Positions 2,822 to 19,838 of a stretch of 21,009 nt of DNA are shown in pieces. How positions within the stretch are numbered: the first letter of the stretch is position 1; each line of letters opens with the position of its first letter. The DNA comes from a bacterium. Lineage in GTDB: Bacteria; Babelota; Babeliae; Babelales; JAUWHS01. Under the pieces are notes generated by a model that had not been told where the DNA came from, did not search any database, and saw only the letters and a program-made list of their open reading frames with translations. A program made the translations under genes and the position numbers. The DNA lies in assembly GCA_043818275.1 (NCBI GenBank), contig JBDRFY010000004.1:1-21009 (forward strand), in the 5' to 3' direction.

Positions 2822-3796
2822 TTATAATTTTTTATCTATATCTTTTCCAAAAACCGCTGTTTCTATTCTTTTTATTCTTTCCTCTGATATTTCGGCGAAT
2901 GTTTTTCTTAGCCGTTGTTCAAAATCAAGGTCTTTTTTAGTTTCTTCTAATAACTTTTTATCAAATTCTATTTCTTTAAACATACTTTTGATAATTAAAT
3001 AGCTTAAAAACATGGAAATTACGAGCATTGTTCCATTCCAAATGTATTGCTCAAAAGAATTTGAAATCACAAAATTTAAAAGCAGTAAAGATAAAAATAA
3101 AATGACCAAAAATTGAGTCATCATTATTTTTACGCCAAAAAATTGATGTTTTACAGTTGAATATATAATAAATAACAAAAGAGGAGAATAAGTTATACTA
3201 ACCAGACTAGCAAGTTTAAAATTGTCGAAAAATAAAGGAAGGAAAAAATTAACGACGAATGCTAACAAACCAAAAATAGAAGAACCAATAAAAACTGAAA
3301 GAATCTGTTTCTTTTTAAAAATATCTGTCTCTTGTATTGATTTTCTCGCTAATTTATAAAGGCAAGCTACAATAAGCAATCCTATATATAAGGAATATAT
3401 TGGAAATAAAACACCCTTATTTCCAGTATATCCAAATGGTTCTAACACAGCGAAAGAAGTCACTACATAATTAGAAAAAGAAGATATAAAAAATATTACT
3501 ACAGAAAATGGTACTATAAAATAGAAAATAAATAATGGAGTTTTTTCTTTCACTAAATTATAAACCCATATTAATGCAAATGTTGCCACAAAAATTCCTA
3601 ATCCGTATGATAATAGACCATATACGCTGTATGCATAGATTCTCAATAAAAAATTATCAAGCAACCATATCGTTACGATAAAAGAAAAAATCAAAAAAGA
3701 AATATGTTGCTTCGATTTTTTTGCGTTCAAAAAGACAAAAAAAGTTAGCGTAAAATTAACTATGCCAAGGAATAAAATAATATTGGTTATTGCCAT
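2822..3796 (-). CDS. Kinase-less HisKA_7TM-like membrane sensor protein
   Basis: Same TM architecture as the kinase N-terminus (KHQFFGVK, SMFKE); ends in a short helical tail LDFEQRLRKTFAEI; no H-box. Confidence 0.8.
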   Translation of the reverse strand: MAITNIILFLGIVNFTLTFFVFLNAKKSKQHISFLIFSFIVTIWLLDNFLLRIYAYSVYGLLSYGLGIFVATFALIWVYNLVKEKTPLFIFYFIVPFSVVIFFISSFSNYVVTSFAVLEPFGYTGNKGVLFPIYSLYIGLLIVACLYKLARKSIQETDIFKKKQILSVFIGSSIFGLLAFVVNFFLPLFFDNFKLASLVSITYSPLLLFIIYSTVKHQFFGVKIMMTQFLVILFLSLLLLNFVISNSFEQYIWNGTMLVISMFLSYLIIKSMFKEIEFDKKLLEETKKDLDFEQRLRKTFAEISEERIKRIETAVFGKDIDKKL

Positions 3797-3804: not shown

Positions 3805-4809
3805 TTATTTATTTTTTAAATTTCTATCAATTTTATTAAAAATTATTTTTTCTATTTTCTTTGTTTGTTCTTCTGCTATCTCGGCAAATGTTTTCCGTAG
3901 TCGTTGTTCAAAATCAAGATTTTTCTGCGCGTCCTCTAATAATTTTTTATTAAGTTCGTTCTCTTTGTAAACGCTTCTCAAAAATAAAACGCCGATAATA
4001 GTCAGCGAAATAGCTAAAATTATATTTAATATTAAATCCTGAAAATTTACCGAAAAAATAGTTCTAACAAATAATAAAATCCAAACACCAAAAGTCAATA
4101 ATTCACTGGCGAACACGCGAATATTAAAAAGATTATATTTTAAAATAGCATATGTGGTAAAAGCAACCCAAACAAAAGACAAAAAAGCAGGGATGTCGTA
4201 ATACGGAGACCACCCTAAAACAAAAGGTAAAATAGACACAATTATTATAACGCTGATTGTGAATATGGATGTGCCCCAAATAAAATATTTAAGCTGCGAT
4301 TTTTTATCATTGCCTACCTTAAAATATTTTTTAAAAAGGTTTGTTAATGCAATTAACAGCCCCAAAAGAATATAAGCCCTGCCTAAAAAATCAAGGCTTC
4401 CTGTGGCGCCTACAATATTAAATTCATTTGGAAATATTTCTTTTGCAAAAAGATTTGTAGTTATGGCAAAATAACTAATTATAAAAGCCACCAAATAAAA
4501 AACTGTGGCTTTTATTTTAAGGTTCTTCGTATTTCCCGTAAAATAATAGGTAAAAATATTAAAAGAAGGTATTGTTAAAATTCCTAACCAAGTAGATCGC
4601 CACCAATATATTGAGACAATAGAATATGGATTCCAAAAAAAATATGTTCCGCCGCAAAGAAAAGCGTATAAACCAGAAAACAAAGCTGTAACGCCTAACC
4701 ATATTTTTGCTTTATCATTTTTAGATTTTTTCCAAAGCAATAAAGCTAAAATTAAATTTAGAAAAGCGACGATAAAAAGAGAAATTCCTCTAATTTTTAA
4801 AATATCCAT
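3805..4809 (-). CDS. Kinase-less HisKA_7TM-like membrane sensor protein
   Basis: KSQLKYF, YAILKYNLFNIR..SELL, RSVYKE; tail LDFEQRLRKTFAEI. Confidence 0.8.
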   Translation of the reverse strand: MDILKIRGISLFIVAFLNLILALLLWKKSKNDKAKIWLGVTALFSGLYAFLCGGTYFFWNPYSIVSIYWWRSTWLGILTIPSFNIFTYYFTGNTKNLKIKATVFYLVAFIISYFAITTNLFAKEIFPNEFNIVGATGSLDFLGRAYILLGLLIALTNLFKKYFKVGNDKKSQLKYFIWGTSIFTISVIIIVSILPFVLGWSPYYDIPAFLSFVWVAFTTYAILKYNLFNIRVFASELLTFGVWILLFVRTIFSVNFQDLILNIILAISLTIIGVLFLRSVYKENELNKKLLEDAQKNLDFEQRLRKTFAEIAEEQTKKIEKIIFNKIDRNLKNK

Positions 4810-5943: not shown

Positions 5944-6909
5944 TTATCTAAAATATTTAGACTTAATTTCTTTTTCTGCTATTTCGGCGTAAGTTTCACG
6001 AAGCCGTTTTTCAAAATCAAGATTTTTCTGCGATTCTTGCAATAGTTTTTTATCAATTTCAATTTCCTTGGAAACGCTGCGCATCAACATAATTCCTGCC
6101 ATAAAAACTAAAAACGCCAAAACGCCGTTTATCCAAAATTCTTGATAATTGCTTGATAAAACCACCCTAGCAATTACAAAAATCCAAATAGAAAATACTA
6201 AAAGTTCGCTTATTAAAAGTTTTATATTAAATAAATGATGTTTTGCAATTCCACAAGCAACAATTATCATTCCAACAGCGCCCAAAAAATTGGTAACCGG
6301 CGGAATCATAATTCCATACCAAAGAAAATAATTTGGAGTAGCCCCTATAAATCCTATAATTGCTCCGACAAGAATATATTTAAGCTGAGCTTTATAGGAG
6401 GCATCCGCAGATGTTCTTTTAATTTCTTTGACTATAATATAAGCGGATAATAAAAGATAAAAATACCATACCGCTAAAAATGGGGCTAAAAGAACACCTG
6501 CTTTGGGCCAAAATTCAAAAAATAATTCTTTTTGCACATTTTTGACAATAAATGGAGTGAAATAATCTGTCAGCAAAAAGAAGAAAAATATAACATATCC
6601 GCCTATTAAGAGTTTCTTGTATTGTTTGATTTTGTTTGTAAACGCAAGTATTGAATGAAAAAATAAAATTGCGATGAAAATTGAAGCGCCCATTAAGAAA
6701 AAACGATGATTAAGCAAAATAAGGTTTTTATCTTTTAACAAAAACCATGCAAAATAAGCGTAACTCCAAATAGCCACTGCTCCGCAAAACAAAGCAAACA
6801 CTTTATTAACAAGCTGTTTTCTATTTCTAAAATAAACAATAAAACCTAAAATCGTGGCAACTAATGCATTAACTAAGGGATTTATTATATAAAACAACAT
6901 TCCCGACAT
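5944..6909 (-). CDS. Kinase-less HisKA_7TM-like membrane sensor protein
   Basis: NKVFALF..IWS, KAQLKYI, KHHLFNIK..SELL, RSVSKE; tail LDFEKRLRETYAEI. Confidence 0.82.
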   Translation of the reverse strand: MSGMLFYIINPLVNALVATILGFIVYFRNRKQLVNKVFALFCGAVAIWSYAYFAWFLLKDKNLILLNHRFFLMGASIFIAILFFHSILAFTNKIKQYKKLLIGGYVIFFFFLLTDYFTPFIVKNVQKELFFEFWPKAGVLLAPFLAVWYFYLLLSAYIIVKEIKRTSADASYKAQLKYILVGAIIGFIGATPNYFLWYGIMIPPVTNFLGAVGMIIVACGIAKHHLFNIKLLISELLVFSIWIFVIARVVLSSNYQEFWINGVLAFLVFMAGIMLMRSVSKEIEIDKKLLQESQKNLDFEKRLRETYAEIAEKEIKSKYFR

Positions 6910-7006
6910 ATTTTTATATTTAATTTATCTTTATAATTGACATCTTTTATTATATCACCTTTATCCGTTTATGAAAATAAAATAAAGATATAAATAGTCA
7001 AGAGAT

Positions 7007-7051
7007 TTGACATGTACGATTTTATGGTTTATGCTATATTTAGTTCTTTAA
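7007..7051 (+). promoter_or_regulatory. Sigma70-type promoter of the GreA-like gene, with a boxA-like motif
   Basis: TTGACA (7007), 17 bp, TATGCT (7030); GTTCTTTAA at 7043; SD AAGGAG before ATG 7095. Confidence 0.6.
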
Positions 7052-7094
7052 TTGCTCGTTTAAAATAGCTAATATCGCCAAGAAAGGAGAAATC

Positions 7095-7571
7095 ATGCCC
7101 AATAGACACTATTTTTTAAAAGAGGATCTTGAGGCACTAAATGAATCTATTAGAGATATAGACGACCGCATTAGAGATATATTGCAGCAAGCCGGAGGCA
7201 GTTGCCAAGAGGGCGCAGATACATGGCACGATAACTTCGAATATGAAGAAAGCCAACGTGGCGCGTCTATGTGGTCAAATCGCTTGCGAGAATTGGTTTC
7301 TTTAAGAGCAAGTGCTCATTTGATTATACCTTCTCTTACTGGCGACGAGGTTCTTATCGGTCGCACTGTAACAGTAGAAGATGAAATAACAAAAGAGAAA
7401 AGCACATTCCAAATCGGTAGTTATATGGCCTTGAAAAAAAGGACGGGACAAGAAGTGGTCTCTTACGCCGCTCCGCTTGCGAGCATCCTTATCGGCGCCA
7501 AAGTTGGTGAATCAAGAGAGGGTAAAGTTGGAGGCGAAATAAAAAAATTCAAGGTCATAAAAATAAAATAA
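7095..7571 (+). CDS. GreA/GreB family transcription elongation factor (divergent)
   Basis: N-terminal coiled coil with tip ADTWHDNFEYE; C-terminal VLIGRTVTV and VSYAAPLASILIGAKVGE. Confidence 0.85.
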   Translation: MPNRHYFLKEDLEALNESIRDIDDRIRDILQQAGGSCQEGADTWHDNFEYEESQRGASMWSNRLRELVSLRASAHLIIPSLTGDEVLIGRTVTVEDEITKEKSTFQIGSYMALKKRTGQEVVSYAAPLASILIGAKVGESREGKVGGEIKKFKVIKIK

Positions 7572-7577
7572 TAAAAT

Positions 7578-7608
7578 CACGCAGAACCTAACGGTCACTG
7601 CGTTTTTT
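7578..7608 (+). terminator. Rho-independent terminator
   Basis: Stem ACGCAG...CTGCGT followed by a T run. Confidence 0.65.
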
Positions 7609-7733
7609 ATGTATTAAATTCTTTATGTCATGCTTCATATTTTTTTTCCGAAATGCTTTTTTCTTATAACTCCAAACTACATAAGAAAATTTTTAAATAA
7701 TATCTTAAATTTGTTTTTTTTAAAATGTTTTTA

Positions 7734-8168
7734 TTAGAGAAAAATTCTTTTTAGTCTTTTATAAATAATGTCTTTTTCGCTACTAAAATATGTTTTCACA
7801 TCCTTCTTGTCGGACCAAACAAAATCTGAATGTTCTTTGCTTAAAACAATAATAGGAGATGTCATATTTAATACAATTTTATAAGTATGTTCTGTAACGT
7901 TTTTTGTATTTCCAGTTCTTGTTTCAAAACTATATTTTTCTAAATCCACAAGCATTGCTTTGTTTTCGATATCGTTAATAGTAAGACCGGTTTCTTCCAT
8001 AACCTCTCTTTGTAGAGACGTTAAAATGTTTTCGTTTTTTTCAATTCCTCCCGAGGGAAGCTCCCAAACATTAGGCATAGAATCTTCTAACGAACTTCTT
8101 TTTATTAAGAGCAATTTTCCCGAGGCGTCGATAATAAGCGCCGCTATATTTGTTTTTTTAATAATCAT
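7734..8168 (-). CDS. NUDIX hydrolase (MutT-like)
   Basis: Nudix box GGIEKNENILTSLQREVMEETGL; LLIKRS; LSKEHSDFVW. Confidence 0.92.
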   Translation of the reverse strand: MIIKKTNIAALIIDASGKLLLIKRSSLEDSMPNVWELPSGGIEKNENILTSLQREVMEETGLTINDIENKAMLVDLEKYSFETRTGNTKNVTEHTYKIVLNMTSPIIVLSKEHSDFVWSDKKDVKTYFSSEKDIIYKRLKRIFL

Positions 8169-8230
8169 AATTGTTTTTTACTTTTTATTTTATTGATAAC
8201 ATTAAAAAATGAATTAATATATAAATCAAC

Positions 8231-8438
8231 CCTTCCCCTAATTCCTAAAATTTTTTTAATTGTTTCTTCGCTTATAGGCATAATTGTTTTTTTTTAAATT
8301 TTTATCCTCGGCAATGCTTGTTTTCATTTTTTTATTTTACCACAAGAAATGCAAACAAAAAAGACGGCCAACCCGCCTCTCATTTTTTATCGCCTCCAAA
8401 TAATATTTTTAATGAAAAATGGTGAAAAATGGTGGCTG
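8231..8438. repeat. Copy 1 of a 130-200 bp intergenic element
   Basis: Near-identical to 13724-13895 and 17714-17848 (core CACAAGAAATGCAAACAAAAAAGACGG...TTTTTTATCGCCTCCAAATAATATTTTTAATGAAAAATGGTGAAAAATGG). Confidence 0.9.
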
Positions 8439-8500
8439 AAAAATGGTGGCTGTCCCCATTTTTTGGCTGTCCCCATTTTCCATCCATTTTTCCCATTTTT
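8414..8500. repeat. REP-like hairpin with nested partial copies
   Basis: Full AAAAATGGTGGCTGTCCCCATTTTTT at 8439-8464, preceded by growing 5' fragments and followed by 3' fragments. Confidence 0.88.
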
Positions 8501-8516
8501 CTCGGCTCACTAAAAT

Positions 8517-8545
8517 TTGACAATGATAATTATTTATACTATATT
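8517..8545 (+). promoter_or_regulatory. Sigma70-type promoter of the NDK-like gene
   Basis: TTGACA (8517), 17 bp, TATATT (8540). Confidence 0.65.
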
Positions 8546-8588
8546 AAAAAAGATCGAGTTTGTCATCTATTTCCGAAAGGAGATTAAC

Positions 8589-9074
8589 ATGAGTCTTAGC
8601 TTTTTAATGATCAAGCCCGATTCGTACAACAGGTGCATTGCTGATACTGTTAGAGTTGATGTTCTGGTTTTATGCCGGAATTATCACCTTGAAGTTGTCG
8701 GCCAATGGACAAAAAAGTTAACACGGGAAGAAGTCTTAAGGATATACTCCACCATTCGCGAAAAGTCATTTTTCGACGAATTCATGGGATTGATGGTGTC
8801 CAACTATTCCACACTCATTTTGGTTGACGGAACCGATGCGGTTGTAAAAACCAAACTGATTCGGGGTGATTGTAGGCACAGTAATTCAGATCCTATGAGT
8901 GGCATTCGTGGCAAGTATTGCTATGTAGAAGACATTAGTGCCGACGATTGGGATAAGTTGCTTAAGAGGTGTCATCCTGACACCGAAAGACTTATTCAAA
9001 TCATCATTGGTGGCGTTCTACACGCTCCCGACAGCGAACAGGAAGTTCAACCCACACTAGCCGTGTTTAACTAA
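8589..9074 (+). CDS. Nucleoside diphosphate kinase-like protein (divergent)
   Basis: SD AAGGAG before ATG 8589; FLMIKPD, KLIRG, IRGKY, and catalytic-His region LHAPDS. Confidence 0.8.
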   Translation: MSLSFLMIKPDSYNRCIADTVRVDVLVLCRNYHLEVVGQWTKKLTREEVLRIYSTIREKSFFDEFMGLMVSNYSTLILVDGTDAVVKTKLIRGDCRHSNSDPMSGIRGKYCYVEDISADDWDKLLKRCHPDTERLIQIIIGGVLHAPDSEQEVQPTLAVFN

Positions 9075-9079
9075 AACCC

Positions 9080-9108
9080 AGCAGCGGACTTAATTGCTCG
9101 CTGCTTTT
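9080..9108. terminator. Hairpin between convergent genes
   Basis: Stem AGCAGCG...CGCTGCT followed by Ts. Confidence 0.6.
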
Positions 9109-9631
9109 ATTTGTAAAAATCCTCTTGGAAACTACATATTAAAAATGCTATACGCAATGCTTCAGTAAAACTCTTTTTTCTCTCAATAAGTTCGTCTAAA
9201 TGATCAATAAGAATCTGGGATTTATCACTATTTTCCTTTCGGAAAACTCTTATTGTATCACCAAACTGCTCACCATTGTCTATTTGATCTGAGACTTTTT
9301 TGGGAAGCGGCAATTCACTGCTCATACCAATAAATTGTTTTCCTTGATTGTCAATCATAACAGCAACACAGATTAAATAATATAAACCGTTTATTTTCAG
9401 TAATCCGCCCTCTAATCCTATTGAAAAAGCAAATTCTCTACCATTTTTTGCAGCGTTTCTTGCGCGATTAGTAGCACCAAGTATAGTAGTATCCTCATCT
9501 AAAGGCTGATCTACTATTTCCGAACTGACATCTTGCGGAAGAATATTATATTTTTTGCCCTGTTGCTCAAAAAAATCTTTTACAATTTTTAATTTAGACT
9601 CACTTGTTGTTCCTATCAAAATATTTTCCAT
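9107..9631 (-). CDS. yjjX: Inosine/xanthosine triphosphatase (YjjX/DUF84 family)
   Basis: ILIGTTSESK, VSSEIVDQP, GATNRA, IGLEGG, LPLP. Confidence 0.82.
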   Translation of the reverse strand: MENILIGTTSESKLKIVKDFFEQQGKKYNILPQDVSSEIVDQPLDEDTTILGATNRARNAAKNGREFAFSIGLEGGLLKINGLYYLICVAVMIDNQGKQFIGMSSELPLPKKVSDQIDNGEQFGDTIRVFRKENSDKSQILIDHLDELIERKKSFTEALRIAFLICSFQEDFYK

Positions 9632-9636
9632 TTTTT

Positions 9637-10839
9637 TTATTTTAATTTTAATTCGTGCCCCATTCTTTTTTGCTTGGTTGCTAGATAATGTTTATTATCC
9701 TTGCACGGTTTTATCTCAAGCGGAATTCTACCCTCAACAATAACGCCGAGCTCTTCTAATTCCCTTATTTTTTCCAAATTATTTGTTAAAATTTTCACGC
9801 TTTTTATTTTCAAGTCATTTAAAATATCCCTAACAGCTGTATATTCTCTCATTTCTATTGGAAAACCCAGCATCTCATTTGCATCTACGGTATCGGCCCC
9901 TCTCCTTTGCAAGTTATAGGCGTCTATTTTATTAACAATGTTTATACCACGTCCTTCCTGGAACAGATAAATCAATAACCCTTGTTTGTTTTTCTCAATC
10001 ATTGATAATGCCCTTGCCAACTGATCCCCACAATCGCAAAGCAAAGATCCAAAAATATCACCGGTAGCACAAGAAGAATGAACTCTTAATAAAACGCCTT
10101 TTTTATTTTCGATATCGCCCTTAATTATTGCTATTCCTGTTGTGTAATCTATTTTTGACAAATAGGTTATGATATCAAATAAGCCAAATTTGGTATTCAA
10201 TTTTGAGCTCGATTTTCTTTCGTAAGTAGTCTGAATATTTTTTTCATGGCTTTTTATCTTTTCGAAAATAGAACTAATAACAAAGTGTTTTGGTTGATTG
10301 GCGCTGACACTGAAATATGATTCTGATATGGGCGATAAAATACGGATGGCGTCGGTCACAAATTCAAAAAAGGTATAATATTCGTTTTTAATATCTTCTC
10401 TGTTAATTTTGTTTTTCAGCATTGCACTACCGCAATTTGAGCAAAAATTCCCTTTAATAATATGAAAATCACCTTTATAAATAAACCCACACTTCTCGCA
10501 GAAAAATCTATTTTCTAAATTGGAAATTACTCTTTCTAAGTTAATATTCAGTTGAATAATAGATTTAACGGTGACTTTTTTTTTATTAAGTATTTCCAAC
10601 AGGAATTGAGCCTCTTCTTTGTTAATAGGAAAACCGCTCAACACAATTTTATCATTTTCGCCAAACCCATTTATGAGACTATTTTTTAAAAGTTTTAATT
10701 TATTTTCTTTATTTGTTTTAACTTTGATGTCGCGCCAAGCGATATGCAAAGCATCAAAAAAATCTGCTATTGTTTTTGAATACAGTGTCTTATTTGCCCC
10801 CGGTGGTCCCACGAAAATATAAATTTCTTTTTGGTTCAT
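9637..10839 (-). CDS. ribA: Fusion of an adenylate kinase-like domain (Zn-LID, degenerate) and GTP cyclohydrolase II
   Basis: N-terminal half: GPPGANKT, SGFP, CEKC..CSNC. C-terminal half: RVHSSCATGDIFGSLLCDCGDQL, QEGRGI, DTVDAN, LTNN, YLATK..RMGH. Confidence 0.9.
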   Translation of the reverse strand: MNQKEIYIFVGPPGANKTLYSKTIADFFDALHIAWRDIKVKTNKENKLKLLKNSLINGFGENDKIVLSGFPINKEEAQFLLEILNKKKVTVKSIIQLNINLERVISNLENRFFCEKCGFIYKGDFHIIKGNFCSNCGSAMLKNKINREDIKNEYYTFFEFVTDAIRILSPISESYFSVSANQPKHFVISSIFEKIKSHEKNIQTTYERKSSSKLNTKFGLFDIITYLSKIDYTTGIAIIKGDIENKKGVLLRVHSSCATGDIFGSLLCDCGDQLARALSMIEKNKQGLLIYLFQEGRGINIVNKIDAYNLQRRGADTVDANEMLGFPIEMREYTAVRDILNDLKIKSVKILTNNLEKIRELEELGVIVEGRIPLEIKPCKDNKHYLATKQKRMGHELKLK

Positions 10840-10843
10840 AATT

Positions 10844-11824
10844 TTATAAATAACTTATTTGATAAGAATTTGACATTTTTTTAAGCGGCCTCAGAATCTC
10901 TTTATTATATCTTGTTCCCTTCTCATATCCCATAGACCCAATATTCATAAATTTCACTCCTCTGCTTTGTAATTCTTCACATATTTTAAAATATAAATAC
11001 CTCGACAGACCGGATGTTCCGTATTTTTGCCCGTTTATTTCGTAACCGTTCAAGCATTTATTAATGATGCATATTACAGAATCAGGTCGGACAATTTCTG
11101 CAAGTAAAGCACCGCACAGTTTATTATCAAAATCAACTAATCTTGTCATAAAATTAGGATTTTCCCTGTTTTCTATAAAAAAATCTAAATAATCCAAATC
11201 TGATCTTTCCCGATTAATGCTATACTTCGTACCTTGGGTAGCAAGCCAATTTCTAAAGAGCTCCTGTAATTCTTCCTTCGTTTGAGTGGTCATCTCTATA
11301 TAACTGCATTTGCCAGTCTTTTCAATTTTATTTACATTTTGTCGTAGACTGCCGTAATCCTTACCAGCTAACGAAGCAGTTCTCTCGGTTGATAGTATGG
11401 CTTCCTCAGAAGAATGGGCTGATATCATGTGTTTGTAATTTAATAAAAACTCATGATTTTTTATGTATTCCTCTGAAATTCCCCTAATTGAAAGCGGCAT
11501 GCCAGCCGAAGATGCGTCATTATAAATTCCATCAAATTCTGTGGGATCTAATATTGGATCAATAAGTTGTAATCCGTTATCCCTGCGCAAGGCCAAATTC
11601 ATCCCTTTAGTTTTCAATAAAAAGGGTGAGAATTTTGGATCATGTAAAAGCTTATTTAGGTAGGTAGCGCACTGCTCAAAAAGAACTTCGCTTTCATACC
11701 CAAACCTTTCCAGGTATTCAGATTTTAATCTATCCGTATTTTCGGGTTCAAGCTCAAATGGAGCCAACCATTTTTCTGAAAATTCCTCACCATCATTAGC
11801 TTCATGAAATGATTCGTTTTTCAT
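10844..11824 (-). CDS. DUF2156 / LPG_synthase_C-like aminoacyl-tRNA-dependent transferase (GNAT fold)
   Basis: LAGKDYGSLRQNVNK, INKCL, and FMNIGSMGYEKGTRYNKEILRP resemble DUF2156 motifs. Confidence 0.68.
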   Translation of the reverse strand: MKNESFHEANDGEEFSEKWLAPFELEPENTDRLKSEYLERFGYESEVLFEQCATYLNKLLHDPKFSPFLLKTKGMNLALRRDNGLQLIDPILDPTEFDGIYNDASSAGMPLSIRGISEEYIKNHEFLLNYKHMISAHSSEEAILSTERTASLAGKDYGSLRQNVNKIEKTGKCSYIEMTTQTKEELQELFRNWLATQGTKYSINRERSDLDYLDFFIENRENPNFMTRLVDFDNKLCGALLAEIVRPDSVICIINKCLNGYEINGQKYGTSGLSRYLYFKICEELQSRGVKFMNIGSMGYEKGTRYNKEILRPLKKMSNSYQISYL

Positions 11825-12954
11825 AATTTTATTTCGCCCATCTTAATAAGGCTAATATTTTTAGATTTTAAAAAATCTTCATATATTTTCTTAAAATGAT
11901 TACCTATATGCATATAAACCGAAGGAATTGTTGAAACATCTGTGCCCTTTGGAGGTATCGGGAATTTTTTAGCCTTGATTTTATTATTTATTGAGACTAA
12001 CCTACAAGAAATATCCTGCTCAAACTGAATATAAAAACTACCATCATCCTTACCCTGCGTAAGTTGTAATTTAGAGAAGCCTGTTTCTATATTATATTTT
12101 GTCTTATAAAATTCTTCAAGTTGGGCGAAAAAATCAAAATCTCTGCCGAAATGTTTAATACCAGATAATGATAGTACCCAATATATTATCTCCTTGCATG
12201 GCAACAAAATGCCTTCTCGAAGCGATTCAATTATTTTAATTGCTTGATTAGGATTGAATTGATTTATAGTTTTTAAATTATTTGTGTACATAAAATATGG
12301 TGGTGCAATAAGAGATGAATTATTAATCAGATTATCAAGGCTGAAAGGCGTATTTTTGGAATTTTCCATAAGCCAAGGTACAAATTCTTTAATAATAGTG
12401 GTCTGCATAAAACTTTGAGAGTATGTATTATAGAATTCGGCTACATCGGTGAAATCTAAAAATTTATAAATCTCCACCACTAACTTTTTGTAAAAATCAG
12501 ACGAGCTTATGTTCGGATTTTCATTAATAATTTTACCATAGATTTTCATTAATGTTTGGAATCTGTCCAAATAAGCCTTTTTTAATATTGCCTTTTTATA
12601 TTTTGGATAATTGAGAACTAAATCCAGGCAATTTCCCAATTCATTTAGCTGTCCGTCGAGATCGGGTTTAAGCACCGACGATTTTCCCTGAATCTGATTT
12701 ACAGGGAAAATAAAATATTTAGTGTCGTTCGGAGCAAAAATTCCAGAGTCTAAAATAAAATCAGTTCGGCTCTTTTTTATTTTAGGATAAATACTGTCCC
12801 AAATTATTACTTTGACGCCACCCAGCCGCATGAGTCGATGATGCGAATCAATCAATCTGATTGGAATACTAGAATAAACATGATCCACGGTTGAAATTGT
12901 AGACTCCTGAATACCGGTTATTTCTTTAAATTTTTCCTTAAAAAATTTATCCAT
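11821..12954 (-). CDS. Hypothetical soluble protein, first gene of the operon
   Basis: Long ORF; likely start is ATG 12954 (the track uses TTG 12972); its stop overlaps the next ATG (ATGA). Confidence 0.75.
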   Translation of the reverse strand: MDKFFKEKFKEITGIQESTISTVDHVYSSIPIRLIDSHHRLMRLGGVKVIIWDSIYPKIKKSRTDFILDSGIFAPNDTKYFIFPVNQIQGKSSVLKPDLDGQLNELGNCLDLVLNYPKYKKAILKKAYLDRFQTLMKIYGKIINENPNISSSDFYKKLVVEIYKFLDFTDVAEFYNTYSQSFMQTTIIKEFVPWLMENSKNTPFSLDNLINNSSLIAPPYFMYTNNLKTINQFNPNQAIKIIESLREGILLPCKEIIYWVLSLSGIKHFGRDFDFFAQLEEFYKTKYNIETGFSKLQLTQGKDDGSFYIQFEQDISCRLVSINNKIKAKKFPIPPKGTDVSTIPSVYMHIGNHFKKIYEDFLKSKNISLIKMGEIKL

Positions 12955-12970
12955 GTTAATTAATTTTAAC

Positions 12971-12999
12971 AAAAAAGACCGCTCTCTGCAAACGGTCTC
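12971..12999 (-). terminator. Terminator of the second GreA-like gene
   Basis: On the minus strand, stem AGACCG...CGGTCT followed by a T run. Confidence 0.65.
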
Positions 13000-13020
13000 A
13001 TAACTAAAACTACTTCGTTC

Positions 13021-13491
13021 CTATTTACAGGAAGATGGCGGAAAAATCTGACCGATTGTTACCGTAATTTTCCTGATATCGGCTATAAAACTTATCGTTT
13101 CTCCTGACTTTGCACCAAGAATAGCTTTGCCCAATGGGCTATCCATTGAGAGCGAGTCCTCTGAACCGGGAAGAACAAAGCTTTCAATTAAGTAGTTTTC
13201 CGTATCTCCATCCTTGTAGATAATTTCTACCATATTGCCGAACTGAACGCTTTTGTTTTGTTCAACTGGCTCAACGATTTCAGCATTGGCAAGCACCGTT
13301 GCAAAATTATTGGCTATGCTGTCATGAACAAATGTTTCTCTTAAGCTTAACTGGTATCCCTCATCATGATGGCCATCTTGCTCGGCACCAGACTGGTAAC
13401 CACTGCCAGCGATGTCGTCAGCCTTTTTTCTTGCTTTTTCGACCATCGTCTTGAGCTCCGCGAACTTTTTGGGAGTAAAAAAATGTCTCAC
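13021..13491 (-). CDS. GreA/GreB family elongation factor (divergent paralogue)
   Basis: SD GGAGG and GTG start; tip QDGHHDEGYQ; VQFGNMVEI; LSMDSPLGKAILGAKSGE. Confidence 0.85.
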   Translation of the reverse strand: MRHFFTPKKFAELKTMVEKARKKADDIAGSGYQSGAEQDGHHDEGYQLSLRETFVHDSIANNFATVLANAEIVEPVEQNKSVQFGNMVEIIYKDGDTENYLIESFVLPGSEDSLSMDSPLGKAILGAKSGETISFIADIRKITVTIGQIFPPSSCK

Positions 13492-13528
13492 GATTAGTCC
13501 TCCACATTCAAGGGTAGCTAATTGTTTT

Positions 13529-13575
13529 CTTTCAATGAACCTATTTGATTATAACACAATATATATTTTTTTCAA
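13529..13575 (-). promoter_or_regulatory. Promoter of the second GreA-like gene
   Basis: TTGAAA, 16 bp, TGnTATAAT on the minus strand, followed by GTTCATTGAAA. Confidence 0.55.
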
Positions 13576-13619
13576 GGACGTGTATTAAATTATATAAAAT
13601 CAAACTGAAAGCATGTCGA

Positions 13620-13730
13620 GTATATGTATAAAGTATAAAGGAGTATAAAAAGATAAAGAGATAAAAGAGAGATAAAAGGGTCAGGTACCTTTAAATTCCT
13701 CTACAGGTAAAGGGCGAGTCTTGCCTTCCC
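13620..13730. repeat. Second stutter array leading into other REP-like imperfect palindromes
   Basis: GTATAAA/AGATAAA(A)G iterations end in AAAAGGGTCAGGTACCTTT, then AAGGGCGAGTCTTGCCTT. Confidence 0.6.
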
Positions 13731-13895
13731 TTAATTTCTAAAATTTTTTTAATTGTTTCTTCTTTTATCGGCATAATTATTTTTTTCTTTTTTTTATTTT
13801 ACCACAAGAAATGCAAACAAAAAAGACGGGTTAACTCGCCCTTCTTTTTTTATCGCCTCCAAATAATATTTTTAATGAAAAATGGTGAAAAATGG
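13724..13895. repeat. Copy 2 of the intergenic element
   Basis: Aligns by eye to 8231-8432; lacks the CCTCGGCAAT...TTTTCAT segment. Confidence 0.9.
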
Positions 13896-14015
13896 AAAAT
13901 GGTGGAAAATGTGGAAAATGGGGAAAATGTAAAATGGAAAAATGAAAAATGGGGACAGCCACCATTTTATTGTTTTTTTGAAAAATGAAAAATGGGGACA
14001 GCCACCGTTTTTTTT
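13877..14015. repeat. AAAATG(G) stutter array plus two REP-like hairpins (reverse orientation)
   Basis: About 10 AAAATG units, then AAAAATGGGGACAGCCACCATTTT at 13945-13968 and a second copy from 13988. Confidence 0.88.
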
Positions 14016-14043
14016 AGTTATTATTTTTCCCAATGTCTTTCCT

Positions 14044-14669
14044 TCAAAAATAAATTTCGAATCTCTTTTTAATGTCTGTAAATTTCTCTTTTCTGAAGTT
14101 GAACTTAAAGCCGGGCCTGTCGTTTAAATTCTCGCACACTTTGTAAAAATCTTTGTCGTTAAGAATTTTTAAATTAAGTTCCGCGCAAACTGACGAGATT
14201 TTTTTGTTCGCCTTTTTTACATTATCTGAGTTAGTGGCAATTTCTGCCTCAAAATAGCAACCCCAACCAGGAACTTCTACTAAAGCAAATTCAACTTGTT
14301 CATATAAATATAAATAAGTTTTCGTCGCCTGCAACACCCCATAATAAAAACCAAGTAAATTTAAAAATTCTGCCATCTCTCCGAACTTTTTCGAGTCTAT
14401 CGGAAATAAAAATTCTTTTCTTGCATCGTTTCCGCTCCATTTACCATACTTTAAAACTAACTCTGATTTTTTATTTGTAATCCTTATTCTCAAATCTATG
14501 GGGTTATCTTTATCCAAATCAAAATTTTCCTCTTTTCCGTGTAAAAAATAGATCACAGAAAATCTATTCTTTTCTCCGATAAATTTTCCTTTTTTTTCAA
14601 AAACTTATTTAAATCTTTAAATTTTTTCGCGGACAAAAGTCCACGGTGTTCAACTTCAATTTTTGTCAT
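14044..14669 (-). CDS. CYTH-domain triphosphatase / class IV adenylate cyclase-like protein, split by a frameshift at an A8 run
   Basis: ATG 14669 gives MTKIEVEHRG (ExE motif) in a different frame from LRIR..LVLK..RKE..YFEAE. A -1 shift at 14590-14597 joins them. Confidence 0.8.
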
Positions 14670-14739
14670 GTTTTTTATAAAATATTTTTAAAATTGTGGT
14701 TCCACGATTCTTGTTTTGATTTTAGTTTTTTTTACGAAT

Positions 14740-15165
14740 TTATTTGAAAAATTTTTTAATTGTCGCTTTTACGCCCGGGGTATATTCTAAATTTTTCCGC
14801 TCATTTTTTGAAACCCATTTAAATTCCGTATGTTCTTCGCTTAATAATACATCTCCATTAATCGGCCGCGCCTTAAATCCATAAATATTAAATTTTTTAT
14901 CTGGGCAGTTATAAACGCAAAAATGATTCTTTTTTAACTCTATGTCTAAACCGCTTTCTTCTTTTGCCTCTCTTTTTGCGGCTTCTTGCAGGGTTTCTCC
15001 GCTTTTTACATTTCCCCCGGGCAAATCCCAAAAATTTGGATAACTCGGTTCATGCGAGCTTCTTTTTAAAACAAGAATTTTTTTCTGACTGCTAAAAATT
15101 ACAACGCTAACGCATTTTTTCTTGGGTTTTTTTGAGTTGTAAATTTTACTTGGAATATGGTTCAC
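14740..15165 (-). CDS. NUDIX hydrolase (MutT-like)
   Basis: GGNVKSGETLQEAAKREAKEESGL; LSEEHTEFKW. Confidence 0.92.
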   Translation of the reverse strand: MNHIPSKIYNSKKPKKKCVSVVIFSSQKKILVLKRSSHEPSYPNFWDLPGGNVKSGETLQEAAKREAKEESGLDIELKKNHFCVYNCPDKKFNIYGFKARPINGDVLLSEEHTEFKWVSKNERKNLEYTPGVKATIKKFFK

Positions 15166-15238
15166 AATTTAAATTTTTTTGTTTATAATTTTGCCATAGA
15201 TTTTGCATTGGGGCTATTTTTGTGGTAGTTTAAATAAT

Positions 15239-15592
15239 ATGAAAAAATTTTTAAAACTAACTGCTTTTAAGATTATCCTTACGATAATAATAGTGTTGGC
15301 GGCCTTCGGCGGCAATCTTCTCTATTCAAACAGCATAACTGTTGTTGAAGATAAGATTGTGGAACCGAATTTAGCAATAAGAACAATAAATTTTGTGTCA
15401 AATATCATTTTTTACCCTGCCCGTCTTATCAACAACCTTTTTATCACTAAAAGTTTTATTGCTAATTTAATCACTAATGAGTCGCAGAGCTACATGATCC
15501 TTCTGTTTTTGTTTAGTTTTTTATTACCTGTTATTTTAGAAGCATATTTAATAAGCTGCTTTATTTCTGTACTTATTCGTAGAAAGCAATAA
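15239..15592 (+). CDS. Small membrane protein, paralogue of 5544..5927
   Basis: ATG 15239 gives MKKFLKLTAFKI; FGG.LLY, IIFYPAR, YLISC. Confidence 0.78.
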   Translation: MKKFLKLTAFKIILTIIIVLAAFGGNLLYSNSITVVEDKIVEPNLAIRTINFVSNIIFYPARLINNLFITKSFIANLITNESQSYMILLFLFSFLLPVILEAYLISCFISVLIRRKQ

Positions 15593-15597
15593 AGAGA

Positions 15598-15636
15598 GAG
15601 ACCAAGCATAAAACGAGTTATGCTTGGTCTTTTTTT
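15598..15636. terminator. Terminator between convergent genes
   Basis: Perfect stem AGACCAAGCATAA / TTATGCTTGGTCT followed by a T run. Confidence 0.8.
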
Positions 15637-15650
15637 GTGGTCTCGCGTTA

Positions 15651-16061
15651 CTACTGAATTCGGAGATACACAAAGTCGCCGCCCCTGAAGTTCTTAAACA
15701 CAATTCTGCATTGTGTTCCTTTCGTCAGGTATAGTCTCCAGCTTGTCGTCCAGGGCCACGGTTGTACATTATTGGACCATATAAACTGCCAACCCACCCG
15801 CGGGGCATAACCGTAAATACTTCCTACGGTATATGGATTATGTTTATATGACCAAATCGGATTGCTCCACCATGTAACAGTACATGGTCTAGCGTCGGGT
15901 GTGTAGTAAACCGTTAAGGTTGAACCGCTGTCAACCGACCAAAGTATTGTCTGTCCGCGCGAGATGGTACCGATCTGATCACCTGCTCTTGCGGCAGCGG
16001 CAAAAACAAAAACCAAGGCCAACACTAACGAAAACACCAGCTTCGACATGCGTTGAGACAT
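15651..16061 (-). CDS. Secreted protein of unknown function, paralogue of 4984..5433
   Basis: Signal peptide MSQRMSKL...AARA/G; shared I(S/T)xGQ, YYxxD.RP and C-terminal VY(I/L)x(V/I). Confidence 0.8.
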   Translation of the reverse strand: MSQRMSKLVFSLVLALVFVFAAAARAGDQIGTISRGQTILWSVDSGSTLTVYYTPDARPCTVTWWSNPIWSYKHNPYTVGSIYGYAPRVGWQFIWSNNVQPWPWTTSWRLYLTKGTQCRIVFKNFRGGDFVYLRIQ

Positions 16062-16124
16062 TGCTTAACTCCTTGTAAAAGAACGAAATGTTGTGGCTAA
16101 AAACAACTTTCAGCCGCTGGCTTT

Positions 16125-16207
16125 ATTTTAGCAAAATAAAAAGTGTTGTCAATAGTTATGACAACAAATATATTGGTTGACACTATCTTAAAATTAGGAT
16201 ATATATT
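16125..16207. promoter_or_regulatory. Divergent promoters with a palindromic operator candidate
   Basis: Minus strand: TTGACA (16152-16147), 16 bp, TGnTAAAAT. Plus strand: TTGACA at 16177. Inverted repeat TGTTGTCA-N7-TGACAACA at 16144-16166. Confidence 0.6.
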
Positions 16208-16232
16208 ATAATTGTTAAATAGGGTGGATTTT

Positions 16233-17655
16233 ATGGCAATAAAAAATTATAAAAAAAATCAGCAACTGGACAATCTTTTAGACATTCTTGGCCTAAGGGG
16301 CAAAGAAAGAGATGTTTTTTCTCTCTGTTTTTTTTTCAGGTCCCCTGCCTGCCTCTACCATTGCCAAAGAATTAAATATCAACAGAGCGGCTGTTTACCA
16401 GATTATAAACCAGCTTATAGAAAAAGAAGTCTTGCAGAAAGAAAATATTTCCGGAAAAAAACGCTTGTTTAATTCTGTGTCCGCAGAAGAAATAAAAGGA
16501 ATGCTTTTGCAAAAACAAAAACAGATTTCTGAAATAGAAAACCAGCTACCCTCGCTTTTGCTTGATAAAAAAATACAACAAGACAGCGATTCTTTATCAG
16601 TGGAAACTTTCAGCACTTCTTTGTCTTTAAGGCAAATGCTGTATCGCGCAATGGATAATTCAAAAGAAAAAATGTATTTAATTGCCAGCGTTGACAGCCC
16701 TTATAATATTTATGAAAAAAAAGTTTTTGATTCTTTTTTGAAAGAGTTGTCTCGAAAAAAAATAATATTGTATGTATTGGTTCCAAGAGAAGAAGATGCG
16801 AAAAAAAATAACATGTGGAATCGCGAATCAATAAAGGTTAAATTTTTAGAAAAAAGCGATTATCCGTTTTCTGACGGACTTTTGATCTCTGATAAATTTT
16901 TATTTATGTTTTCCTGGAATCCTCAAAATCCAAAAGGCCTGATGATTTCAGACAAAACAATCAGGCAGACATATTTGTCTTTGTTTTTACTGCTTTGGGA
17001 AAAAACTATTTATTCTGAGCAAAAGACAGATAATAAAAAAGTTTTTCCAAGCAATATGCAATTAGTTCCGGGCGGTTATTTTTATTCTGGCGAGGAATCA
17101 AATGCCAAGAAAATATTTTTAGATTCGTATTTAATAGATAAAACGCCCGTAATTAACACAGAATACCAAAAATTTGTTAAGGCAATCGGTTATCATTTTC
17201 CAGAGCATTGGAAAAATGGACAAATTCCAAGAGGCGAGGAAAACTATCCTGTTTATAATGTTTCGTGGTATGACGCAAAGGCATATGCTAATTTTGCCGG
17301 AAAAAGATTGCCCACAGAAGAAGAGTGGGAAAAGGCGGCAAGGGGAAGCGATAAAAGAATATATCCTTGGGGAAATAATTTTGATGTTAATTTTTGCAAC
17401 ATATTAAGAAAAAACAAAGGCGCTACTCCTGTTGAGAAATATCCTTTAGGTAAAAGTTATTATGGTTTATGTGATATGGCGGGCAATGTTTGGGAGTGGA
17501 CAGATACTCCAAGCAGCGAAAAAAATTATTATATTATAAAAGGCGGCTCGTGGTCAGATAATGAAAAAACCGCTCAATGTTTTTATAAAACATCAGAGTT
17601 TGCCGACAAAAAATACGATAACATCGGCTTCCGCTGCGCAAAGGATATTATTTAA
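16233..17655 (+). CDS. TrmB-family regulator (wHTH and effector domain) fused to an FGE-sulfatase/SUMF1 domain; frameshift near the 5' end
   Basis: ATG 16233 gives ...LGLRGKERDVF, which continues as SGPLPASTIAKELNINRAAVY in another frame. C-terminus has PVYNVSWYDA, RLPTEEEWEKAARG, YPWG, DMAGNVWEW, KGGSW, IGFRC. Confidence 0.82.
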
Positions 17656-17670
17656 GTATCTTTCAAACAA

Positions 17671-17704
17671 AAAAAACGCGAATAAATACTCTTCGCGATT
17701 TTTT
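17671..17704 (+). terminator. Terminator
   Basis: Stem CGCGAA...TTCGCG followed by A and a T run. Confidence 0.6.
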
Positions 17705-17713
17705 AATTTAGTC

Positions 17714-17848
17714 CCTCGGCAATAGTTGTTTTCATTTTTTTTATTTTATCACAAGAAATGCAAACAAAAAAGACGGGTTAACTCGCCCTTCCTTTTTTAT
17801 CGCCTCCAAATAATATTTTTAATGAAAAATGGTGAAAAATGGTGGCTG
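17714..17848. repeat. Copy 3 of the intergenic element
   Basis: Matches 8306-8438. Confidence 0.9.
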
Positions 17849-17876
17849 TCCCCATTTTCCATTTTTTCATTTTTTT
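17824..17876. repeat. REP-like hairpin with partial copies
   Basis: AAAAATGGTGGCTGTCCCCATTTT at 17835-17858, followed by CCATTTTTT and CATTTTTTT. Confidence 0.88.
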
Positions 17877-17911
17877 ACTTTTTCTCATATTTTTAAATTA
17901 TAAATAATTTT

Positions 17912-17944
17912 AAAAGAAAAGGGGACTACAAGGAACAGCCCCCA
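17912..17944 (-). terminator. cysS terminator
   Basis: On the minus strand, stem GGGGCTG...TAGTCCCC followed by TTTTCTTTT. Confidence 0.65.
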
Positions 17945-17951
17945 TAATTTA

Positions 17952-19343
17952 CTAAACGACCATCTTTTGGACGCGTGAACCGCTCTTGGTGTCTTGGATT
18001 TTGTATCCCTTCGACTCCAATTCGACCCTAACTTTGTCGGCCTCGCCCCATTTCCCCTCCTTTCGAAGGGTTTCCCTGCTTGCGACGAGAACCATGACTT
18101 CGTCAGGAATCTTGTCTTCCTTGACCTTCATAAAGTCTAATCCTAACACCTTATCAAATTCGGCGAATGTGGCCCTTTTCATCGCAGACGGAAGTGTCAT
18201 GCCGACAACTTTCCAAAGAAAAGCAACAGCTTGCGGCGTATTCAGGTCGTCATTTAAATACCCCCGAAATTCGCCAAGCAATTCTTCGTCTGGTTTGGCA
18301 TTAGTATCTTCCCATTCAGCAATCCTCTCTCTCAAGGAAGACAACGCTTTCTGGGACCCACCAAGACCGTTCCAAGTGAAGTTGAGACCGGCGCTGTATT
18401 TAGCAGTCAGCAACAGATACCTAAAAGCAAGTGGATCGTATCCTTTGTCCACAATATCTTGGAGTGTATAGAAATTCCCCAGGCTTTTAGACATCTTTCC
18501 GCCGTCAACGGTTAGAAAAGCAACATGCATCCAATACCTTGCGAATTGCTTCCCAGTTGCTGTTTCAGATTGAGCGATTTCATTGGTGTGGTGCACCGGA
18601 ATGTGATCAATCCCGCCGGTGTGCACATCAATTGTTTCTCCGAGATACTTCATCGCCATCGCGCTGCACTCAATGTGCCAGCCGGGGAAACCTACGCCCC
18701 AAGGACTGCTCCACTCCATCTGGCGTTTTTGATCCTTGGGAGAAAACTTCCAAAGGGCGAAATCTGTTGGATTCCGCTTTTCAGGATTTTCCTCGACACG
18801 TGCGCCGGACATTATGCCGTTGATGTCCAGCCTTGCCAAATGTCCATACTCGGCAAGCTTAGATGTGTCGAAATAAACCCCATCAGAAATTTTGTATGTA
18901 TAGCCCAGTTTTTCTAAACATTCAATCAGTGCAATCTGCTCTGGGATATGCTCGGTTGCCCTGCTCCAAACGGTTGGGGACTTAATATTAAGACTAATGA
19001 GGTTTTGCTTGAAGAGATCGGCAAAAAATTCCACAATATCCCAAGCCGAACGGTGTTGTTCCCTTGCACGAGCTTCGATTTTATCCTCACCCTCATCAGC
19101 ATCAGACCTGAGATGCCCGACATCGGTAATGTTTATTACGTGCGTCACTTCATAGCCGTTAAACTCAAACATCCGCCTGAGAATATCGGCGAAGACATAT
19201 GCCCGCAAGTTCCCGATGTGCGGGTAATCATAGACCGTTGGCCCGCAAGTATAAATCTTAACCTTGCCGGCCTCCAATGGCACGAACACCCTCTTCTTTC
19301 TTTCGTAGGTGTCGTAAATCTGAACTTCGTTTGATGTTTTCAT
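17952..19343 (-). CDS. cysS: Cysteine--tRNA ligase
   Basis: [39 protein letters not shown]. Confidence 0.98.
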
Positions 19344-19380
19344 TTTTATATCCTCTATTTTAACTCTCTGTGGTGAGATT

Positions 19381-19453
19381 GTAAAATGATAAAATGGGTA
19401 AAATGTAAAATGTAAAATGTAAAATGTATAAAATGGGGACAGCCACCATTTTT
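19381..19453. repeat. TAAAATG stutter array plus REP-like hairpin
   Basis: Six TAAAATG units, then AAAATGGGGACAGCCACCATTTTT from 19430. Confidence 0.88.
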
Positions 19454-19803
19454 ATACCTGCCCACTCTTCTTGTTGTTTGTTCAATGTGTGAAAATGTGA
19501 AAATGGGGTCACTATTTTTTGACCCTATTTTTTATTTTTTTTTGCCAGTGTTAAAAAATAATCATCTGTTTGACTTATAAACGATTTATCGCCATCTTTT
19601 TTGGGGTATAAAACTAAATGTCAATGATTTGGCATAATACAATATGCCAATAATCTCATGTCAAGCCCCTTCACAGCGTCCGTTAAAATACATTCAAAAA
19701 TTTGATAATCTTTATCATTGTCAAAAATTTGAACACGAACATTGGCTCTGTTTAATATGTGATACACTTTTCCTCCTATATCGGTGCGTGATGTGCGTGG
19801 CAT
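19440..19803 (-). pseudogene. Decayed REP-associated tyrosine transposase (RAYT; Y1/HUH)
   Basis: MPRTSR..VYHILNRAN..IF..D..LLAYCIMPNH*HLVL with TGA inside the HUH motif; then KSFISQTDDYFLTL; a C-terminal-like fragment IEQTTRRVGRYKNGG runs into the hairpin. Confidence 0.85.
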
Positions 19804-19838
19804 AATTTATTATATCTATTTATATCATAAATTTACAT

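Follow-up and report, generated by a model that had tools for sequence, protein, structure and literature searches.

A contig of 21,009 nucleotides (nt) from the genome of a Babelota bacterium (JBDRFY010000004.1; the whole stretch analysed here, hereafter the window) carries several copies of a 23-base hairpin repeat, AAAATGGTGGCTGTCCCCATTTT, which are bordered by irregular ladders of partial copies of the same repeat. The ladders consist of locally generated tandem duplications, which border the outer end of a Y1-transposase repeat, recur across phyla and change fast. The repeat itself is well supported as the approximately 23-nt terminal inverted repeat of a TIRtron, a small mobile element with a single gene, for the RAYT-like Y1 (HUH) tyrosine transposase TIRYT. 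We lean, on balance, towards a reading in which nicking by the transposase at the outer junction of the TIRtron repeat seeds the duplications, while slippage resizes them.

Ladders of partial repeat copies in the window

Ladder 1 occupies positions 8413–8501 (plus strand, as for all features below unless stated otherwise). Read from left to right, 8414–8500 consists of GAAAAATGGT, GAAAAATGGTGGCT, one full copy (8439–8465), GGCTGTCCCCATTTT, CCAT, CCATTTTT and CCCATTTTT, with prefixes of the repeat to the left and suffixes to the right of the full copy, which stands in the GGTGGCTGTCCCC orientation. Tandem Repeats Finder resolved 8413–8501 into four abutting arrays with periods of 10 (2.2 copies), 14 (2.1), 17 (1.9) and 9 (2.0), all 100% matched. 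The region thus consists of short, perfect tandem duplications strung together around a single full AAAAATGGTGGCTGTCCCCATTTTTT. Ladder 2 (13876–13968) is one-sided, nine prefix pieces of the AAAATG type preceding a full copy at 13945–13968 in the GGGGACAGCCACC orientation, opposite to that of the copy in ladder 1. A second copy in the orientation of ladder 2, with one mismatch (13977–14012) and a 7-nt stutter at 13979–13994, forms a 43-nt tandem duplication with the end of this ladder (start-to-start spacing 43). Ladder 3 (17823–17876) is again two-sided, with GAAAAATGGT to the left and CCATTTTTT and CATTTTTTT to the right of the full copy at 17835–17858.

The remaining copies lie at or near a decayed transposase gene. 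In ladder 4 (19380–19453), four TAAAATG units and variants thereof precede the full copy at 19430–19453, which is the outer repeat on the 3' side of the gene. The outer repeat on its 5' side is a full copy with one mismatch, GGCTGACCCC (19839–19860), which is followed by the suffix piece CCATTTT (feature 19839–19868), and a degenerate repeat-like copy within the gene relic, AAAATGGGGTCACTATTTT (19487–19520), has its own 8-nt stutter, TGTGAAAA in 2.2 copies. Finally, at 20953–21009 the prefix pieces GGGG and AAAATGG precede a full copy (20965–20988), and 20965–21009 is an exact 45-nt repeat of 19430–19474, comprising the terminal repeat and the truncated end of the relic gene. As the contig stops within this 45-nt repeat, a second copy of the relic probably lies past the contig end.

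The duplications measure 7–17 nt and are mostly perfect, with one breakpoint 0–5 nt outside the repeat and the other at varying depth inside it, and this combination accounts for the prefixes on one side or the suffixes on the other. Ladders 1, 2 and 3 are each entered directly from one of three paralogous intergenic modules of about 110–180 nt, copy A (8231–8413) running with its right end into ladder 1, and copies B (13724–13876) and C (17699–17823) running into ladders 2 and 3, respectively. The first 10-nt duplication is common to all three, after which the ladders differ.

The window is the entire contig (C4) of an assembly of 1.33 Mb in 92 contigs with 94% completeness. A 15-mer core of the repeat gave nine matches in the genome at up to two substitutions, eight on the window contig (one of them a partial duplicate at 8461) and one on another contig, C66. 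This sole copy elsewhere (2987–3020 of C66) carries a 12-nt stutter, CCCCATTTTCCA in two copies, and lies within the last codons of a 64-residue open reading frame (ORF); a 194-residue ORF begins, with GTG, a short distance downstream. Similarly, five of the six clusters of at least three AAAATG/CATTTT words in the genome are on the window contig. Perfect tandem duplications with periods of 7–20 numbered 16 within 2,120 nt around the motif, compared with 219 in the other 1.32 Mb. This corresponds to a density of 7.55 versus 0.166 per kb, an approximately 45-fold excess, with 0.35 duplications expected near the motif (Poisson P = 1.8e-21). A generally slippage-prone genome was rejected as the cause, given the background of only 0.166 per kb and the presence of MutS and MutL homologues in the genome, and the latter finding also led to the rejection of absent mismatch repair as the cause.

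A preliminary description of the window, made from the sequence alone, had reported ladders of partial hairpin copies at 8414–8500, 13877–13944, 17824–17876, 19381–19429, 19861 and 20952. All listed strings and coordinates are present in the sequence, and the four perfect adjoining arrays together with the local excess of duplications establish that the irregular ladders are real.

As single-stranded DNA, the core folds at -6.8 kcal/mol on either strand (z = -3.75 and -3.38). The region of ladder 1 (8410–8505) folds into a long nested hairpin of -23.2 kcal/mol (z = -5.6) and ladder 3 reaches -13.0 kcal/mol (z = -4.2), since in the two-sided ladders the left and right pieces pair and thereby lengthen the hairpin or palindrome. 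The one-sided ladders folded no better than shuffled sequences.

Partial copies at the outer end of the repeat across phyla

Partial copies were sought beside 176 distinct copies of the repeat (17-mer, at most one mismatch), defining a fragment as an exact piece of the motif of at least 7 nt within 40 nt on either side of a copy. Full and near-full copies were masked, and the resulting count replaces one that was confounded by the partner copies of doublets. Outside the window genome, the set comprises 168 copies at 103 loci. Here, a piece was present in 21 of 160 flanks on the left and in 16 of 163 on the right, compared with 47 of 920 control windows, which corresponds to odds ratios of 2.8 (p = 5.5e-4) and 2.0 (p = 0.027), respectively. 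Left pieces comprised 17 prefixes and 5 suffixes, while right pieces comprised 23 suffixes and 2 prefixes. Counted per locus, polarity was concordant at 20 and discordant at 2 of the 103 loci, the other 81 having no partial copy, and the word pair AAATGG/CCATTT was likewise polar outside the window genome (p = 2.5e-4). Clear ladders stand beside intact elements at loci L091, L093, L119 and L123, the last one at a variant repeat, GGGGTCAGTCACC.

Each copy of the repeat consists of a GGGG/CCCC half and a GGTGG/CCACC half, and the two sides differ in their flanks. On the GGGG side, 23 of 161 flanks had an anchored partial copy, compared with 3 of 162 flanks on the opposite side (p = 2.4e-5). The difference persisted among the 92 copies with no neighbour within 40 nt (15 on the GGGG side versus 1 on the other), and in the window genome the corresponding numbers were 7 of 8 and 2 of 7. 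The GGGG side corresponds to the element's outer terminus: in ten TIRYT loci that were examined, two of them cut on the upstream side, the GGGG half of every gene-adjacent repeat points away from the gene, with GGGGACAGCCACC upstream and GGTGGCTGTCCCC downstream in gene orientation. Since both strands of the repeat fold equally well, a structural stall alone should in principle affect both sides, and the asymmetry therefore points to events at the junction between element end and flank.

The duplicated units mostly repeat 1–5 letters of the flank as well, such as TG at 8414 and T at 19381 in the window, and GAT, AG, CT or ATG in other genomes. This non-repeat part measures 0–7 nt, with a median share of 0.20 (67 units), and the outer breakpoint keeps close to the repeat boundary, while the inner breakpoint varies. 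Because the units carry locus-specific flank letters, the pieces appear to have been made in place and not re-inserted.

These data bear on several statements of the preliminary description. Its polarity, with 5' pieces on the left and 3' pieces on the right, recurs elsewhere at 20 versus 2 loci; it does not by itself point to nicking, because any duplication with one breakpoint inside and one outside the motif generates it. The observation that fragments keep the outer end of the hairpin is borne out by the partial copies at the outer end of the element, and the possibility that such fragments are equally common away from hairpins is countered by their lower frequency in the control windows. 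As to the ladders being scars of repeated events, local duplications at a repeat of the Y1/HUH transposases, enzymes that cut and religate single-stranded DNA, agree with this, while the re-insertion that had been offered as one route is made unlikely by the locus-specific flank letters.

Identity of the repeat and the relic gene

RAYT-like Y1 transposase genes (TIRYTs) located between long inverted repeats, many of which share the sequence GGGGWSAS, have been described (Di Nocera 2013, PMC3733652), and some such repeats are, according to the sections of that paper drawn on here, moderately abundant as gene-less copies in the form of singles, dimers and clusters. GGGGWSAS is restated for TnpA-Y1 subclass 2.1 in the part consulted of a later classification, which places most TIRYTs in this subclass, equal to RAYT group 1 (Quentin 2018, PMC6006769). 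The motif in the window contains GGGGACAG, which fits GGGGWSAS, in all copies except that at 19839–19860, where GGGGTCAG fits as well.

Between the inverted copies at 19430–19453 and 19839–19860 (19430–19456 and 19834–19860 being 89% complementary over 27 nt) lies the TIRYT relic, on the minus strand at 19462–19806, derived from a gene of approximately 225 residues. By tblastn it matched a 225-residue ORF of a Saccharibacteria genome, which itself stands beside a near-copy of the repeat (L068; 44% identity, E = 3e-29), and a 228-residue ORF at locus L067 (40% identity, E = 7e-29). In addition, 60 residues matched Pfam Y1_Tnp (E = 4.4e-4; 27.4 bits). A TGA at 19621–19623 replaces the middle residue of the HUH motif (W or F in relatives), a 33-residue internal deletion takes out the conserved GHLYQGRY, and the C-terminal third is missing. 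With the stop in the HUH motif and the GHLYQGRY region deleted, the window thus holds a dead TIRYT member. At position 19621, contigs of two groundwater sequencing runs (X1 and X5) have C for T, which on the minus strand turns TGA into TGG (Trp), as in the relatives; an unbroken HUH codon accordingly persists either in a second copy or in part of the population. Taken together, one decayed TIRtron (19430–19862) and at least six gene-less repeat copies are well supported for the window; the copies beyond the TIRtron number six on the window contig and one on C66.

Six intact relatives encoded beside the repeat scored 56–66 bits on Pfam Y1_Tnp. The HUH motif, NH-W/F/V-HLV, aligned in all six, and GHLYQGR[YF] in five, with GHLWQSRF in the sixth (L079); L103 was left out of the protein alignment on account of a stop in frame. 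The relatives have 220–252 residues, including a C-terminal extension of approximately 90 residues for which no Pfam match was found at E up to 1. The motif was not found near any of the five intact Y1_Tnp genes elsewhere in the window genome. In the window itself, an Rfam scan returned only a chance microRNA match (25 bits versus a cut-off of 100), and no tRNA genes were found.

Comparison with known transposase-associated repeats

The arrangement in the window resembles the TIRtron/TIRYT system as far as the sections of PMC3733652 drawn on here describe it, both in the RAYT-like Y1/HUH gene between long inverted GGGGWSAS repeats and in the gene-less copies occurring as singles, dimers and clusters; it differs in that the gene of the window is a relic. 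For subclass 2.1, the consulted part of PMC6006769 describes a C-terminal helix-turn-helix (HTH)-like extension similar to Bac_DnaA_C, HTH_23 or HTH_28, whereas the extension of the relatives studied here has no Pfam match, and it states that no REP-like sequences were found near genes of this subclass. This kind of element is already known; the window adds a decayed member and several gene-less repeats in a phylum where the gene is rare. The present analysis contributes the outer-side asymmetry of the partial copies and the identity of a 20-mer of the repeat across phyla (see below). Partial copies shorter than the repeat and stacked at its outer end are not mentioned in the sections used of PMC3733652, PMC6006769 and PMC3116915, and a literature search with the letters of the motif returned only an unrelated paper on a human gene.

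Short hairpin repeats tied to a Y1 transposase are also characteristic of the REP/RAYT/REPIN system, judging from the portion consulted of Bertels and Rainey (2011, PMC3116915), and in other genomes the motif forms inverted doublets (44 cases) like those of REPINs, in which two closely spaced inverted copies are the mobile unit; one doublet interior recurs in at least three flanks. Classical REPs have GTAG or a similar tetranucleotide at the hairpin foot, whereas no GTAG stands beside the motif, and the relatives scored 54–65 bits on NCBIfam REP_Tyr_transpos, below its cut-off of 80. Moreover, REP sequences are described in the portions of the literature used as species-specific, whereas the 20-mer is identical across many phyla, and REPIN clusters as tandem whole units with their flanks, whereas the ladders consist of partial copies.

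A third point of comparison is the IS200/IS605 family. In these elements, for example IS608, the targets of the Y1/HUH enzyme are imperfect hairpins of single-stranded DNA that contain an unpaired base, and cleavage takes place at a fixed position next to the hairpin; the end hairpins lie in direct orientation on one strand, and TnpA is short (about 130–150 residues). The elements described here differ in having inverted ends and proteins of approximately 225 residues (220–252), which scored 17–23 bits on the IS200 model (cut-off 55).

Origin of the ladders

One conceivable origin is misassembly, the ladders lying in repeated sequence of low complexity in a metagenome-assembled genome. The window makes up one complete contig out of 92 and stops within a repeat, the motif is the break point of many metagenome contigs, and one contig of run X1 connects module copy C to ladder 1 through the 56 nt common to both. 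The window was compared with contigs of public groundwater runs that had been built by another pipeline; X1 may be the source sample, which makes its contigs an independent assembly and not necessarily independent data. An X1 contig matched 8383–8512 with 0 differences, and X1 and X2 contigs covered 8383–8512, 17356–17858, 18780–19421 and 19430–20275 without any differing letter and with no more than one gap. Stronger still is the occurrence of the same type of ladder at the motif in unrelated assemblies with different contig-naming styles, and an artefact is therefore hardly credible. Length variants, each seen on one contig of depth 2–4.4, comprised 7 nt fewer at 19398 in ladder 4 (X2), an additional CCATTTTCCA at 19853 (+10 nt; X3) and an additional 10 nt at 17879 (X1), and the T-runs at 13964 and 17854 were one base longer in some contigs. 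The proposal that the ladders record a site-specific history is thereby upheld, as the paralogous copies and the contigs of different runs differ. Other doublets of the motif with short loops, e.g. CTCCCGGAG, CTCGGAG and CTCCGAG, were also present in runs X1–X3, so that the repeat appears to be common in other organisms of the groundwater community.

We infer nicking and rejoining as the cause of the ladders, and the sequence of events could be as follows. The transposase would nick a single strand at the repeat's outer foot, staying covalently attached to the 5' end, while the free 3'-OH of the flank would be extended by a few bases into the repeat. Rejoining, through the reverse reaction of the enzyme or through break repair, would leave an additional prefix, and the ladder would grow by repeated rounds. 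Slipped-strand mispairing between the units could then add or remove units. As the genome as assembled lacks an intact cognate transposase, the ladders seen here would mostly be historical scars that drift by slippage. In a stricter form of this proposal, which we entertain only tentatively, each unit is the footprint of one TIRYT round, consisting of a nick at the outer foot, short strand-displacement synthesis and rejoining by the enzyme.

Several observations weigh against transposase nicking as the seed of the ladders. To our knowledge, no cleavage site, activity or biochemistry of any TIRYT has been reported, and a tblastn search for genes of the TIRYT kind in the window genome found only the relic and hence no intact cognate transposase. 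AT-rich loci showed ladders more often (21 of 93 and 14 of 95 flanks) than GC-rich loci did (5 of 65 and 4 of 66 flanks). In addition, the ladders at 8414 and 17824 include partial copies at the inner side of the repeat; both of these adjoin paralogous modules and have the first 10-nt duplication in common. The side asymmetry weakened to 34 of 161 versus 18 of 162 flanks (p = 0.016) under a looser definition of a fragment, the polarity of the 6-mer pair AAAATG/CATTTT outside the window genome was not significant (p = 0.2), and the counts of prefixes and suffixes in the flanks (17 versus 5 and 23 versus 2) include some fragments entered twice. Moreover, the copies are not phylogenetically independent, and the length variants between runs may be errors, as may any single-contig difference below depth 5. 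Junction microhomology was 0–2 nt near the motif and mostly 0–1 nt in the background, which does not discriminate between mechanisms.

The main rival is slippage independent of any transposase, in which the hairpin stalls the replisome and the nascent strand realigns at the A/T runs and at short TG or AG repeats, the resulting short duplications growing and shrinking afterwards. It would agree with all units being simple tandem duplications with 0–2 nt of microhomology, with the bias towards AT-rich loci, with a genome devoid of an intact cognate transposase, with the unit-number variant (-7 nt) in the contig of another run, and with the way in which two-sided ladders extend the palindrome. 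It does not readily explain the imbalance between the GGGG side (23 of 161 flanks) and the opposite side (3 of 162), or that of 15 versus 1 at solo copies, when the strands fold equally (-6.8 kcal/mol each); the short non-repeat part of the units (median share 0.20), the low genome-wide rate of duplication and the presence of MutS and MutL homologues also count against it. We consider slippage alone possible, at clearly lower probability than duplications seeded by the transposase.

Two further explanations appear much less probable. The arrays might be selected, iteron-like binding sites for the transposase or a host protein that regulate neighbouring genes or the element, as AAAATG(G) recurs at a spacing of 7–10 nt in intergenic regions and a promoter-like site, TTGACA-17-TATATT (8517–8545), begins shortly downstream of ladder 1. 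Short direct repeats beside a nick-site hairpin are, furthermore, usual at origins served by HUH Rep proteins. Selected sites are nevertheless improbable, given that the units are irregular in length and spacing, the ladders vary from one paralogous module to the next and from run to run, partial copies occur at only approximately one fifth of the other loci (20 + 2 of 103) and no conservation of an array was seen. Nested re-insertion of whole or partial copies, which would split a resident copy into a left prefix and a right suffix, is more doubtful still. The arrangement at 8414–8500, a full copy with prefixes on the left and suffixes on the right, has the expected appearance, and GGCT is common to the prefix GAAAAATGGTGGCT and the suffix GGCTGTCCCCATTTT, like a 4-nt target duplication. 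The outermost prefix, GAAAAATGGT, however, has no matching suffix, the majority of the ladders are one-sided, most units contain locus-specific flank letters, and tandem duplication is a simpler account of every step.

Distribution of the repeat and its doublets

An exact 20-mer of the repeat, ATGGTGGCTGTCCCCATTTT, was found at 48 loci in species-representative genomes and at 65 metagenome loci, giving 113 loci, some of which are one contig deposited twice (copies were de-duplicated by identical 40-nt flanks). By record title, the hosts of the genome loci include Saccharibacteria, Staskawiczbacteria, Alpha- and Gammaproteobacteria, Nitrospiraceae, Acidobacteriota, Bdellovibrionales and Hydrogenedentales, and the local G+C content of these loci ranges from 0.36 to 0.72. 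Identity of the 20-mer across genomes of 36–72% G+C shows an unusually tight constraint and makes it a handy marker for finding such elements. A TIRYT-like gene was located within flanks of 1–1.5 kb at 15 of the 113 loci, and the gene lies between terminal inverted repeats at L088, L091, L103, L119 and L123 too.

The motif was found in 0 of 40 relatives, except for one match with two mismatches in G012, and a genome of the same genus (G001) shared only 99 nt of similarity with 7000–21009 of the window. A TIRYT of this kind was detected in 2 of 261 genomes of the phylum at E up to 1e-20, the window genome included; the second carrier (G175) has a different, fully palindromic repeat. The rarity of the gene in the phylum suggests that the TIRYT element arrived horizontally. 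Viral contigs gave 0 matches to the 20-mer, and a tblastn search of plasmids with the L067 protein found nothing at E up to 1e-20.

In other genomes, the motif occurs as inverted doublets, 44 of which have their GGGG halves outward versus 0 in the opposite arrangement. Most spacers measure 40–48 nt (mode 42), and their sequences are unrelated (median identity 0.49). The doublets often directly precede a ribosome-binding site and start codon. Among three Devosia loci, aligned over approximately 2.2 kb at 85–91% identity, the repeats are kept, while the spacer is common to two and replaced in the third. At L111, L126, L140 and L150, in metagenomes of one series, a doublet with the same interior is found in at least three genomic contexts, and this directly indicates that a doublet can be mobile as one unit. 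The window contains no inverted repeat pair within 90 nt, the nearest arrangement being the direct pair at 13945 and 13988.

Modules and duplicated genes around the ladders

The module preceding ladders 1, 2 and 3 was found on the window contig only, and a metagenome scan with the module end gave 0 matches. It holds a terminator-like hairpin between A- and T-runs, the stem of which displays paired changes (GGCC...GCC in copy A versus GGG...CCC in copies B and C), and an extended -10-like sequence, TGGTAAAAT, was recognised by eye on its minus strand. The surrounding genes include paralogous GreA/GreB-like genes (7095–7571 and 13021–13491), paralogous NUDIX genes (7734–8168 and 14740–15165) and three paralogous membrane-protein genes (2822–3796, 3805–4809 and 5944–6909), one of which has a HisKA_7TM domain. 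With gene families duplicated inside 15 kb, the region has the appearance of a mosaic built by segmental duplication.

Implications

For annotation, ladders of this kind should be read as scars of transposon ends and not as microsatellites, CRISPR-like arrays or misassemblies. Duplication seeded by the transposase would predict a cleavage site 0–5 nt outside the A-run on the GGGG side, with new prefix duplications as the read-out. If each unit were indeed the footprint of one TIRYT round, the fixed outer boundary of the units would mark the cleavage site of group-1 RAYTs, the ladders would provide a natural count of abortive transposition attempts per site, and the TIRYT family would act on opposite strands at its two ends. 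A polar scar at the outer end of the repeat, found from candidate-phyla bacteria to Alphaproteobacteria, bears on how RAYT-type transposases move or maintain short repeats.

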